Virus record (IMG/VR): IMGVR_UViG_2579778952_000009
Coordinates: 1-15,746 of that record
Source: a virus
Taxonomy: Duplodnaviria; Heunggongvirae; Uroviricota; Caudoviricetes
Length of the DNA: 15,746 nt
Strand: one strand, 5' to 3'
This document shows, piece after piece, positions 4,289 through 7,596 of the stretch. Numbering within the stretch: the first letter of the stretch is position 1; the number at the start of each line of letters is the position of its first letter. A program made the translations under genes and the position numbers. The notes beneath the pieces were generated by a model. The model had not been told where the DNA came from, ran no database searches, and was given only the letters and a program-made list of their open reading frames with translations.

Positions 4289-4571
4289 TTTGAGAAAAGC
4301 AGCGCGTGGTCGGGAATGCCAGGTAAGAATCCCTGGCGTATGTAATGGCAATTCTGAAACGTCTGTACTGGCACATATCCGGCTGGCTGGATTGTGCGGT
4401 ACCGGTATCAAACCGCCAGACCTGATTGCCACCATTGCATGTTCTGCCTGCCACGACGAAATCGACCGCCGCACACATTTTGTCGATGCTGCATATGCAA
4501 AAGAATGCGCGCTGGAAGGTATGGCGAGAACACAGGTTATCTGGCTGAAAGAGGGGGTTATTAAGGCGTGA
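4281..4571 (+). CDS. ybcO: YbcO (DUF1364, putative nuclease), 96 aa
   Basis: ATG 4281 is preceded by AGGAGG at 4271-4277. [40 protein letters not shown]... is Cys-rich. Its stop overlaps the rusA GTG start. Confidence 0.8.
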
Positions 4572-4930
4572 ATACCTACAGCATCACATTACCCTGGCCT
4601 CCGAGCAATAATCGCTATTACCGCCATAATCGCGGGCGCACGCACATCAGCGCAGAAGGGCAGGCATACCGCGATAACGTCACCCGAATCATTAAAAACG
4701 CAATGCTGGATATCGGCCTGGCTATGCCAGTGAAAATCCGTATTGAGTGCCACATGCCGGATCGCCGTCGCCGTGACCTGGATAATCTGCAAAAAGCCGC
4801 TTTTGACGCACTCACCAAAGCAGGTTTCTGGCTGGATGATGCTCAGGTCGTTGATTACCGCGTTGTGAAGATGCCTGTTACCAAAGGTGGGAGGCTGGAA
4901 CTGACCATCACCGAAATGGGGAATGAATGA
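4568..4930 (+). CDS. rusA: Holliday junction resolvase RusA
   Basis: 120 aa with GTG start. [26 protein letters not shown]...[29 protein letters not shown] matches RusA from memory, including the catalytic Asp-rich region. Confidence 0.9.
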
Positions 4931-5152: not shown

Positions 5153-5536
5153 ATGCGTGATATTCAGATGGTTCTTGAGCGTTGGGGAGCGTGGGCGGCT
5201 AATAATCATGAAGATGTGACCTGGTCGTCCATTGCCGCCGGTTTTAAGGGATTAATTACTTCAAAAGTAAAATCTCGCCCGCAATGTTGTGACGATGACG
5301 CGATGATTATTTGCGGGTGCATGGCCCGTCTGAAAAAGAACAACAGCGATTTGCACGATTTATTAGTAGATTATTATGTAGTCGGTATGACATTCATGTC
5401 ACTGGCAGGTAAGCATTGCTGCTCTGATGGTTATATCGGGAAAAGGTTACAGAAGGCTGAGGGCATAATTGAAGGGATGTTAATGGCATTAGATATCCGG
5501 TTAGAGATGGATATCGTTGTTAATAACTCTAATTAA
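5153..5536 (+). CDS. quuD: Late-gene antitermination protein Q (QuuD-like)
   Basis: ATG 5153 with GGAG 6 nt upstream (the track ORF starts at TTG 5138). [24 protein letters not shown]... has the Cys cluster [16 protein letters not shown] and matches DLP12 QuuD from memory. Confidence 0.85.
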
Positions 5537-5552
5537 TATGCCAATTGTTTAC

Positions 5553-5587
5553 TAAAAATTATTAAAAATGGGGCGTTGAGACGCCCC
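5553..5587 (-). terminator. Candidate Rho-independent terminator of nmpC, minus strand
   Basis: GC hairpin GGGGCG-ttgaga-CGCCCC at 5570-5587. On the minus strand it is followed by AUUUUUAAUAAUUUUU. It lies about 140 nt downstream of the nmpC stop. Confidence 0.45.
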
Positions 5588-5675
5588 CAAAAATAAAGGG
5601 TAATATATAACTGAAGGTTTATATAGTTAGAAGCAAGGTTGTGCTTCTAAAGGAAGTGGCTTGAGGGAGCCACTT

Positions 5676-5717
5676 ATATGTTGGGGAGGCAACGCCTCCC
5701 GCAACATATCTTTTTCG
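5676..5717 (+). terminator. Candidate intrinsic terminator, plus strand (possible tR'-like element downstream of quuD)
   Basis: Extended inverted repeat atatgttggggaggc-aac-gcctcccgcaacatat followed by CTTTTTC. It lies about 140-180 nt downstream of the quuD stop. Confidence 0.4.
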
Positions 5718-5725
5718 TAATCAGA

Positions 5726-6808
5726 TTAGAACTGGTAAACCAGACCTACAGCAACGATGTCATCAGTATCAATACCAGCTGTTTTGGTAAACTTACTATC
5801 GTCAATTAAGTTGATTTTGTAATCAACAAAAGTGGACATGTTTTTATTAAAGTAGTAAGTAGCACCGACATCGACATACTTGACTAAGTCTCGGTCACCA
5901 TGAACACCAAGGTCTTTACCTTTTGACTGAAGGTAAGCAACAGATGGGCGCAGACCGAAGTCAAACTGATATTGTGCTACTGCTTCAAAGTTTTGTGCTT
6001 TGTTTGCAATATGGTTATTACCAAAAACGGTCATATTCTGAGTTTCAGAATATGTGGTAGCCAGATAGATATTGTTCGCATCATATTTCAGGCCTGCAGC
6101 CCATACTTCCGCATTTTTGCCGGAGGCATTGAATTTGCTCTTACCATAGGCGACCTGACCGTCAGTGCGATCTGATTTAGCATAGGTTGCACCCACGCCG
6201 AATCCTTCATACTCATAAGTAGTGGAGAAACCGAAACCATCACCATTGGCTTCAGTTACGTCAGTGCGGTCATTTTTACCCTGATACTGAGCAGCAAAGT
6301 TCAGGCCATCGACCAGACCAAAGAAGTCGTTGTTACGATAAGTTGCAACACCAGTAGTGCGACCAGTCATGAACACATCTGTTTGGGTCCAGGTATCACC
6401 ACCGAATTCTGGCAGGACGTCAGTCCACGCACCGATGTCGTATGCTACACCGTAGTTACGGCCGTAATCGATTGAGCCGTAATCACCAAATTTCAGGCCT
6501 GCAAATGCAAGACGGGTTTTGTCTTTGGAAGAACCTTGAGATTCAGCGCGGTTGCCTTTGAATTCATATTCCCACTGACCGAAACCAGTCAGTTGATCGT
6601 TGATTTGGGTTTCACCTTTGAAGCCAAGACGGGCATAAGTAGTATCACCATCATCTGCATCATTAGAGGAGAAGTAGTGCTTAGCATTAACTTTCCCGTA
6701 CAGATCCAGCTTGTTACTGTCTTTATTATAAATTTCAGCTGCCTGAGCAGACATCGCCATCAGTACTGATGCAGCTACAGCAGAAATTGCCACTGTTAAT
6801 TTTTTCAT
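5726..6808 (-). CDS. nmpC: Outer membrane porin NmpC/Lc (OmpC family), apparently intact
   Basis: The track ORF is 5726-6868; the start is set at the internal [23 protein letters not shown] signal peptide (ATG at 6808 with an AAGGG SD). The protein has an AEIYNKD mature N-terminus and the C-terminal beta-barrel signature ...VAVGLVYQF. No insertion sequence interrupts it. Confidence 0.9.
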
Positions 6809-7235
6809 CGTGAGCCCTTTTTTTGAACTATTATTAAAAAATGATGTCACTGCGTGATAAATATTCATCTAATCAATGTGATTATTTCAAGATGTAAGTT
6901 TTGGTTTCTCGTTTAATTTGTGAAGTAGATCTCTATTTTTATCTGAACTTTTTTCTATCGAATCCTATTCATGGCTCTTGGCTGAATAAAAATAAATCTA
7001 TTAGCCAATTTATATTAATGGCTGTTATTTATAAGTGCTCTATAATTTGAAGGTTCAATTTAAATTGGCTAAAAATAACGCTGGAAATTATTTGTTGGTT
7101 ATTTGTTGAGATTTGCTTATGTATTTGTAGTGGTGTTTTCAATACTCGGTAGCATTCTCGCAAATATCATTTAGTGGTTTACGTACGTAAAAAATTGGTT
7201 ATGCTGTTAAGAGTGGTTACTTCGTCACACAGCTT

Positions 7236-7268
7236 AAACCCGCCGTCGAGCGGGTTTTTCCATTTTTT
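7236..7268 (+). terminator. Intrinsic terminator upstream of the lysis cassette
   Basis: 8-bp stem AAACCCGC / GCGGGTTT with loop cgtcga, followed by TTCCATTTTTT. Confidence 0.55.
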
Positions 7269-7380: not shown

Positions 7381-7596
7381 ATGAAATCCATGGATAAGTT
7401 AACAACGGGTGTCGCCTATGGCACCTCAGCAGGTAGTGCCGGGTACTGGTTTTTACAGCTGCTCGATAAAGTCACGCCCTCACAGTGGGCAGCAATAGGT
7501 GTGCTGGGTAGCCTGGTATTTGGCCTGCTGACGTACCTGACAAACCTTTATTTCAAGATTAAAGAAGATAAGCGCAAGGCTGCGAGAGGTGAATAA
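7381..7596 (+). CDS. essD: Class I holin (lambda S-like) with dual-start motif
   Basis: 71 aa, [10 protein letters not shown]..., with a Met1-Lys2-x-Met4 dual start typical of holin/antiholin pairs, predicted transmembrane segments and a charged C-terminus. GAGGTGGGG SD upstream. Matches DLP12 EssD from memory. Confidence 0.85.

Follow-up and report, generated by a model that had tools for sequence, protein, structure and literature searches.

The locus considered here is a gap of 189 nt (5537-5725) between quuD, a late antiterminator gene on the plus strand, and a porin gene of the nmpC/lc type on the minus strand, and the question it raises is which RNA, terminators or regulatory signals are packed between these two convergent genes. 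The window, i.e., the whole stretch of 15,746 nt that was analyzed, is a DLP12-like lambdoid prophage in which the following genes are relevant:

4568-4930, rusA
5153-5536, plus strand, quuD, late antiterminator gene of the Q21/933W family, 127 aa (PF06530, E = 3.5e-53)
5726-6808, minus strand, porin gene of the nmpC/lc type, 360 aa, likely start ATG 6808 (PF00267, E = 2e-151)
7381, start of the holin gene, phage 21-type
7596, endolysin
8078, Rz

Identity of the gap between quuD and nmpC

The gap is the published, already known ipeX locus. Aligned with the quuD-nmpC gap of DLP12 in Escherichia coli K-12, the comparison that an earlier note on this DNA had called for, it agrees in 188 of 189 bases; with the region that follows lc in phage PA-2 (J02580), the identity is 99.5%. 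It is therefore ipeX itself and not a look-alike. Locus, strand and position (from the nmpC/lc stop codon to the terminator) are the same as those of the IpeX RNA of DLP12 and PA-2: the segment starts directly 3' of the porin stop codon (5726-5728), has the same orientation as the porin gene and extends to a Rho-independent terminator. The RNA of about 170 nt that the earlier note had placed at the nmpC 3' end is thus a described one; its 3' end, which it shares with the nmpC transcript, is expected from the position of the terminator at about 5560-5564, so that the distance from the stop codon to the U-tract would be 162-166 nt compared with about 167 nt for IpeX. Two features distinguish the locus from that of K-12, namely a private base at 5612, the sole difference in the gap, and an uninterrupted nmpC reading frame without IS5, whereas K-12 nmpC is split by IS5 (IS5B). 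Since nmpC is intact here, the porin promoter can drive synthesis of the RNA, as in PA-2. The phage porin is labelled 'ompC: porin OmpC' in near-identical genomes.

In one review, IpeX is described as a 167-nt RNA of DLP12 that is part of the porin transcript and is processed; other reviews trace it to PA-2 and DLP12 and give its targets as OmpC and OmpF. According to the literature, IpeX lowers both OmpC and OmpF, and ompA is reported to be unaffected. Of 5426 complete E. coli genomes, 2444 contain a 389-nt segment that spans the gap. Searched against Rfam, the whole window yielded no family at the gathering score, and the region 5450-5800 at E <= 10 gave chance-level matches only, with none to MicF (RF00033); IpeX seems to be absent from this database. 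The primary IpeX paper (2006) reportedly found dependence on Hfq for ompF only and a requirement for the ompC 5' untranslated region, and is said to give an untranslated region of 247 bp, which does not fit the ~165 nt seen here. The RefSeq feature table of K-12 (NC_000913.3, 570000-582000) lists micF among its ncRNAs and no ipeX in the quuD-nmpC gap, and ipeX is not mentioned in the supplements of one Term-seq paper and one Hfq-CLASH paper.

Hairpins of the nmpC 3' untranslated region

The gap contains the following elements, with helices numbered in the direction of the minus-strand RNA:

5553-5569, minus strand, U-tract after the minus-strand terminator, AUUUUUAAUAAUUUUUA (sequence and terminator scan)
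5570-5587, minus strand, terminator hairpin of nmpC and IpeX, GGGGCGU CUCA ACGCCCC (terminator scan and fold)
5590-5624, minus strand, unpaired invariant IpeX core (RNA nt 102-136), a predicted candidate antisense seed
5604-5625, minus strand, weak AT hairpin (helix 4; -1.3 kcal/mol)
5612, private base change, plus-strand T (A in the RNA); plus-strand A (U in the RNA) in K-12 and all further alleles examined
5627-5650, minus strand, IpeX hairpin 3, perfect, 9 bp, UUAGAAGCA CAACCU UGCUUCUAA
5654-5675, minus strand, IpeX hairpin 2, perfect, 8 bp, AAGUGGCU CCCUCA AGCCACUU
5676-5709, both strands, hairpin 1, a long dyad of 15 bp with one bulge
5710-5716, plus strand, CTTTTTC run 3' of hairpin 1, candidate site at which read-through transcripts from quuD end (sequence)

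The structure of the gap exceeds chance expectation. The minus-strand RNA of 5553-5725 folds at -63.4 kcal/mol compared with -31.2 +/- 3.8 kcal/mol in 200 dinucleotide shuffles, none of which equals it (z = -8.4), and for the plus strand of the gap z = -6.0. The two strong hairpins that had been recognized from the sequence, at 5570-5587 and 5676-5709, are both present, but a count of two was too low because the hairpins at 5627-5650 and 5654-5675 are also strong. The hairpin formed by 5570-5576 and 5581-5587 (7 bp, 6 of them G-C, -12.5 kcal/mol) is terminator-like for the minus strand alone because its U-tract is found on the minus side (AUUUUUAAUAAUUUUUA) and the plus side reads CAAAAAUAAAGG, as had been noticed; its assignment as the nmpC terminator holds as well, given the G+C-rich hairpin with a minus-strand U-tract that is also picked up by the terminator scan. 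Correctly placed, too, was the T-run of the dyad at 5676-5709, which is confined to the plus strand (CTTTTTC) and has as its minus-side counterpart AAGUGGCUCC, with no U-run. Fold energies of the dyad are -20.8 kcal/mol (plus strand) and -22.2 kcal/mol (minus strand); in the minus-strand RNA, it forms the initial stem-loop of the nmpC 3' untranslated region, 17 nt past the stop codon. It was missed on the plus strand by the terminator scan because of the bulge; judged by sequence and fold, the combination of hairpin and U-run that defines an intrinsic terminator occurs at both the minus-strand site and the plus-strand dyad. The AT hairpin 5604-5625 is unpaired in a divergent clade of alleles and is unlikely to be a genuine element.

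A scan of viral contigs with a conserved 16-mer of the porin C-terminus gave 120 loci. The same downstream sequence is found in 104 of these, at 91-99.6% identity, and three loci (L009, L028 and L037) carry a divergent, ~70% identical version of ipeX. In this second clade (L009:6290-6468, L028:4671-4849 and L037:2497-2676), the gap is also located between a quuD homologue and a porin gene and is more diverged than the flanking genes; the backbone differs, with a DnaB-like helicase upstream and a DNA methylase downstream according to the reading of the ORFs. In a search of one genome per species, the invariant block was found in Escherichia only (E. coli lineages and E. albertii), along with chance matches, so that the covariation test extends over this genus, with no more distant homologues to strengthen it. 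Two loci are found in other contexts. In one (L103:1-600), an ORF for an IS1-type transposase adjoins the ipeX terminator and the similarity to the window stops ~10 nt past the U-tract. In E. albertii NBRC 107761 (L129:6900-7800), a porin fragment is found with a copy of ipeX, and the similarity ends after the terminator T-run; the neighboring, chromosomal-looking ORFs have N-termini that we take to be MinC-, YcgL-, YcgM- and YcgN-like.

Folded singly, the divergent alleles have altered stems but still form hairpins 1 to 3 and the terminator, in unchanged order. Across an alignment of 18 alleles that includes the ~70%-identical clade, 94.5% of the cells are paired, five pairs are changed on both sides (three of them in hairpin 2), and none of 500 shuffles reaches the observed pairing or covariation score; pairing falls to 41-50% when the partners are slid out of register. 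The loop CCCUCA of hairpin 2 is constant while three stem pairs covary, with CCCUUA in E. albertii; hairpin 1 shows compensatory changes in E. albertii and in the L009 clade; hairpin 3 is kept in the divergent clade under a different sequence; and the terminator at 5570-5587 is paired in every cell, its sole changes being to G.U. In the divergent clade, the inner stem of hairpin 1 is misaligned by MAFFT at the point where the bulge closes, and some of the cells scored as not paired are artefacts of this kind. The wobble cells include 24 G.U in the IpeX sense. Outside helix 4, a single A.C cell is taken as genuine (L098, helix 2); eight others, all in the L009 clade, are judged to be misaligned because those stems fold perfectly alone. 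The G.U pairs in the IpeX sense therefore point to selection acting on the minus-strand RNA, the long dyad included.

The plus strand after quuD and the late regulatory block

The location of the long dyad near a Q-type gene had suggested that it corresponds to tR'. This reading is contradicted by a homologue of the pR', qut and terminator region that lies past nmpC:

7178-7262, plus strand, late regulatory block, ~78% identical to the annotated promoter/qut/terminator of VT2-Sakai and phi24B
7178-7205, plus strand, pR'-like promoter, -35 TTTACG (7178-7183), -10 TATGCT (7200-7205), 16-nt spacer
7209-7220, plus strand, conserved initial transcribed or qut segment, AAGAGTGGTTAC in the alignment with VT2-Sakai and phi24B
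7236-7257, plus strand, tR'-like terminator followed by a T-run (terminator scan)

This block is found between nmpC and the holin gene, 120 nt before the latter and ~1.5 kb from the gap, so that the window has a lambdoid pR'-qut-tR' module of the 933W/VT2-Sakai type. In phages of that type, the end of Q overlaps the annotated late promoter, which is followed by qut and then by the terminator; here, ~5513-7176, comprising the last quuD codons, the gap, nmpC and the nmpC promoter region, intervenes between Q and the late promoter. QuuD matches the phage 21 Q structures 6jnx and 6p18 and shares 78% amino-acid identity over 126 residues with the Q protein of VT2-Sakai (933W-type). The protein tracks the 157-aa 933W-type Q to about residue 120 and then diverges up to its stop (5486-5536 compared with L004:613-714); the porin module is apparently joined within this end of the Q gene. 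In phage Lambda_2E9 (L136:1860-2060), a related Q is followed by a reverse-oriented blc (lipocalin Blc), with a plus-strand terminator at 1977-2000, unrelated to the dyad, between Q and the blc 3' end. Judging by these arrangements, the site after Q looks like a recurrent slot for inserted genes.

In contrast to the module at 7178-7262, the dyad at 5676-5709 has no promoter or qut upstream, as 5537-5675 was free of promoter-like sites in a promoter/terminator scan, and it is not followed by late genes: nmpC, which comes next, is on the opposite strand, and the holin gene starts only at 7381. With the block of late promoter, qut and tR' situated beyond nmpC, the dyad is not tR'. The rival view, under which a late promoter just after quuD would make the dyad the tR' of the late operon, draws on the strength of the hairpin, on its plus-strand T-run, which ends ~175-180 nt past the quuD stop, and on lambda, phage 21 and phage 82, in which pR' is immediately 3' of Q. 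It is nevertheless very improbable in view of the 933W-type homologue that matches the type of QuuD, the lack of a promoter-like site in the gap, the association of the dyad with the porin module, after which only the antisense of nmpC follows, and the unrelated terminator that Lambda_2E9 has in the same place before a different reverse-oriented gene. The probability that the gap encodes a small plus-strand protein is close to negligible. Both the PA-2 record (ORF1) and the phage 434B record (CPT_434B_68) annotate a plus-strand ORF that starts in the dyad; this candidate was rejected because the ORF from ATG 5678 has 43 codons, begins within a hairpin of -21 kcal/mol and continues through nmpC in antisense orientation, and it is not among the listed ORFs of at least 50 aa.

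The dyad together with CTTTTTC is best read as an insulator at the end of quuD that protects the porin module, and it may stop plus-strand transcription that is not antiterminated. The A-run opposite CTTTTTC (5710-5716) is kept in the alignment of alleles. Against plus-strand termination count the G.U variants in the IpeX sense, which are predicted to weaken hairpin 1 on the plus strand. As each of the two terminators is located beyond the other, the two transcripts would overlap by ~150 nt; consequences of the overlap, such as cleavage by RNase III, are a matter of speculation.

The unpaired core of IpeX and the porin leaders

The core at 5590-5624, which reads AACCUUC-N-GUUAU-N-UAUUAC in the RNA, is the longest stretch that is invariant between the two ~70%-identical clades, and parts of it are complementary to the K-12 leaders of both reported targets. 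Positions 5605-5619 and 5591-5599 complement the ompC leader at -21 to -7 and -31 to -23 (15 + 9 bp). In the common allele, AACCUUCUGUUAUAU pairs with ompC AUAUAACAGAGGGUU (-21 to -7, spanning the Shine-Dalgarno sequence) through 14 Watson-Crick pairs and one G.U, CCUUUAUUU pairs perfectly with AAAUAAAGG (-31 to -23), and the predicted hybrid of AACCUUCUGUUAUAU...CCUUUAUUU with ompC AAAUAAAGG-C-AUAUAACAGAGGGUU amounts to -26.7 kcal/mol. In an overlapping register, GUUAUAUAUUACCCU (5597-5611) complements ompF AGGGUAAUAAAUAA with one mismatch; together with further pairs into the first codons, the ompF site covers -15 to +10, and the hybrids range from -18.6 to -21.6 kcal/mol. The divergent clade has lost the second, 9-bp ompC helix; its ompF 14-mer is perfect in L028 and L037, with one further change in L009, and the L028-clade allele has the 12-mer UUAUUUAUUACC in common with MicF. 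In 5352 of the 5426 genomes, identity in the ompC leader is 99% or higher. The plus strand of the core aligns with this leader over ~30 nt with a score above those of all 500 shuffles, so that the seed may have arisen from an inverted porin leader.

Compared with random 75-mers from the collected loci with the ipeX copies masked, the ompC score is equalled in 4 of 10000 cases and the ompF score in 101 of 10000 (40 of 10000 for the L028 allele). Among 487 unique start regions with a Shine-Dalgarno sequence, an ATG and an open frame, which served as a matched control, one equals the ompC score and 7-24 equal the ompF score; the scores of ompA and nmpC are at the null median. When corrected for accessibility, the energies are -14.4 kcal/mol for IpeX-ompC, -10.5 to -15.1 for IpeX-ompF and -17.1 for the MicF-ompF control, with 0 or above for the ompA and MicF-ompC combinations and +2.1 for the L028 allele with ompC; opening of the seed costs ~3.8 kcal/mol. 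Duplex prediction with the whole RNA against ompC, ompF and nmpC was not significant; a signal emerges only if the unpaired core alone is searched. In silico, the core thus has the accessibility, the conservation and the complementarity above chance that are expected of the seed of a base-pairing sRNA. One control start region (leader ...GGGUAAAUAACAGAGGUGGCUUAUGAGUAUUUCU) pairs with the core at -27.5 kcal/mol, as strongly as ompC; we take it to be that of the phage 434 cI repressor gene (MSISSRVKSK...). Its pairing is probably due to chance, and such pairings therefore occur by chance at about 1 in 500.

The private base change at 5612 is located in the middle of the 15-bp ompC helix. With T, the predicted ompC hybrid drops in strength from -26.7 to -21.6 kcal/mol, and that with ompF becomes slightly stronger. 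This T is absent from K-12 and from the ~120 viral-contig loci, and among the 1750 complete E. coli genomes in which the surrounding 60-mer occurs, none matches the window exactly; the change may be a sequencing error or a real variant.

Taken together, the locus is, with high probability, the ipeX locus of a DLP12/PA-2-type lambdoid prophage with an intact nmpC, to which the proposals of antisense pairing and of an insulator are added. Minus-strand transcription of nmpC would cross the ~165-nt 3' untranslated region and stop at 5570-5587, and IpeX would correspond to this region, either entire or after processing, with stem-loops at 5676-5709, 5654-5675 and 5627-5650, the AU-rich unpaired core at 5590-5624, and the terminator with its U-tail. 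The core would pair with the ompC leader from -31 to -7 and, in the overlapping register, with ompF from the Shine-Dalgarno sequence into the first codons, similarly to MicF, and in both cases would block ribosome binding, while the phage porin mRNA, lacking such a site, would escape. On the plus strand, the long dyad would end quuD transcripts and shield the inserted porin module from antisense transcription. Ordinary antisense repression, with pairing predicted as the mode of action, is the likeliest mechanism of IpeX, at a chance slightly better than even. The more specific proposal of a two-register seed (ompC -31 to -7; Shine-Dalgarno sequence and start codon of ompF), possibly an inverted copy of a porin leader, that spares the phage porin mRNA is evenly balanced between being right and wrong.

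In the published view, base pairing plays no part in the action of IpeX. According to reviews, complementarity between this RNA and ompC has not been found, the regulation is possibly indirect and the effect on ompC needs no Hfq; one review calls IpeX Hfq-independent. The complementarity of the antisense core described here may be a new addition. An indirect action, e.g., through titration of a protein or envelope-stress signalling, with the complementarity being incidental, is a serious alternative to which we assign a chance appreciable but clearly below even. Apart from the statements in the reviews, it would accommodate the three conserved, covarying hairpins, which are without function in the pairing model and might serve to bind a factor, and the control start region that scores like ompC; it does not account for the fact that the sole long invariant unpaired block is an anti-RBS segment for both known targets and not for ompA, with energies comparable to those of the MicF-ompF control. 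The effector could instead be the loop CCCUCA of hairpin 2 (5662-5667), an anti-Shine-Dalgarno sequence that would contact UGAGGG, which is present in the ompF Shine-Dalgarno sequence and at the 5' end of the ompC leader. The loop is unchanged where its stem covaries, but a contact of 6 nt only, the variant loop of E. albertii, the common occurrence of GAGG-type sites, which implies poor specificity, and the fact that conservation of 6 nt against a background identity of 70% is not significant make this an improbable option.

Antisense repression through the core, the preferred mechanism, would place IpeX next to the chromosomal antisense porin sRNAs MicF and MicC, with which it shares the predicted pairing across the Shine-Dalgarno sequence and start codon of ompF; with MicF, the pairing energies are of similar size, in addition to the 12-mer shared by the L028-clade allele. 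The two RNAs are not homologous, as judged by the lack of an Rfam MicF match at E <= 10, and the pairing of IpeX is a prediction; furthermore, the IpeX seed is located in the 3' half of a 3' untranslated region, whereas that of MicF is at the 5' end of a free-standing sRNA. CpxQ, SroC, DapZ and MicL are sRNAs derived from 3' untranslated regions. Like these, IpeX uses the terminator of the mRNA, has its candidate seed just upstream of it and reportedly arises by processing of the parent transcript; in contrast to them, it is called Hfq-independent for ompC in the literature.

Altogether, the locus needs no new explanation, being ipeX with flanking terminators. Its layout is that of a reverse-oriented accessory gene wedged between Q and the late promoter, with a terminator facing each way, and it indicates that a hairpin after a Q gene need not be tR'. 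For twenty years, IpeX has been described as acting without base pairing, and the 15 + 9 bp ompC site and the ompF site make this question testable. If the two-register seed is real, the statement of no complementarity, repeated since 2006, would be overturned, IpeX would be no exception among the porin-regulating RNAs, and the change at 5612 would be a natural seed mutant. Because ipeX adjoins an intact phage porin gene here, the strain is probably able to replace its host porins with that of the phage, in the manner of PA-2 lysogens.
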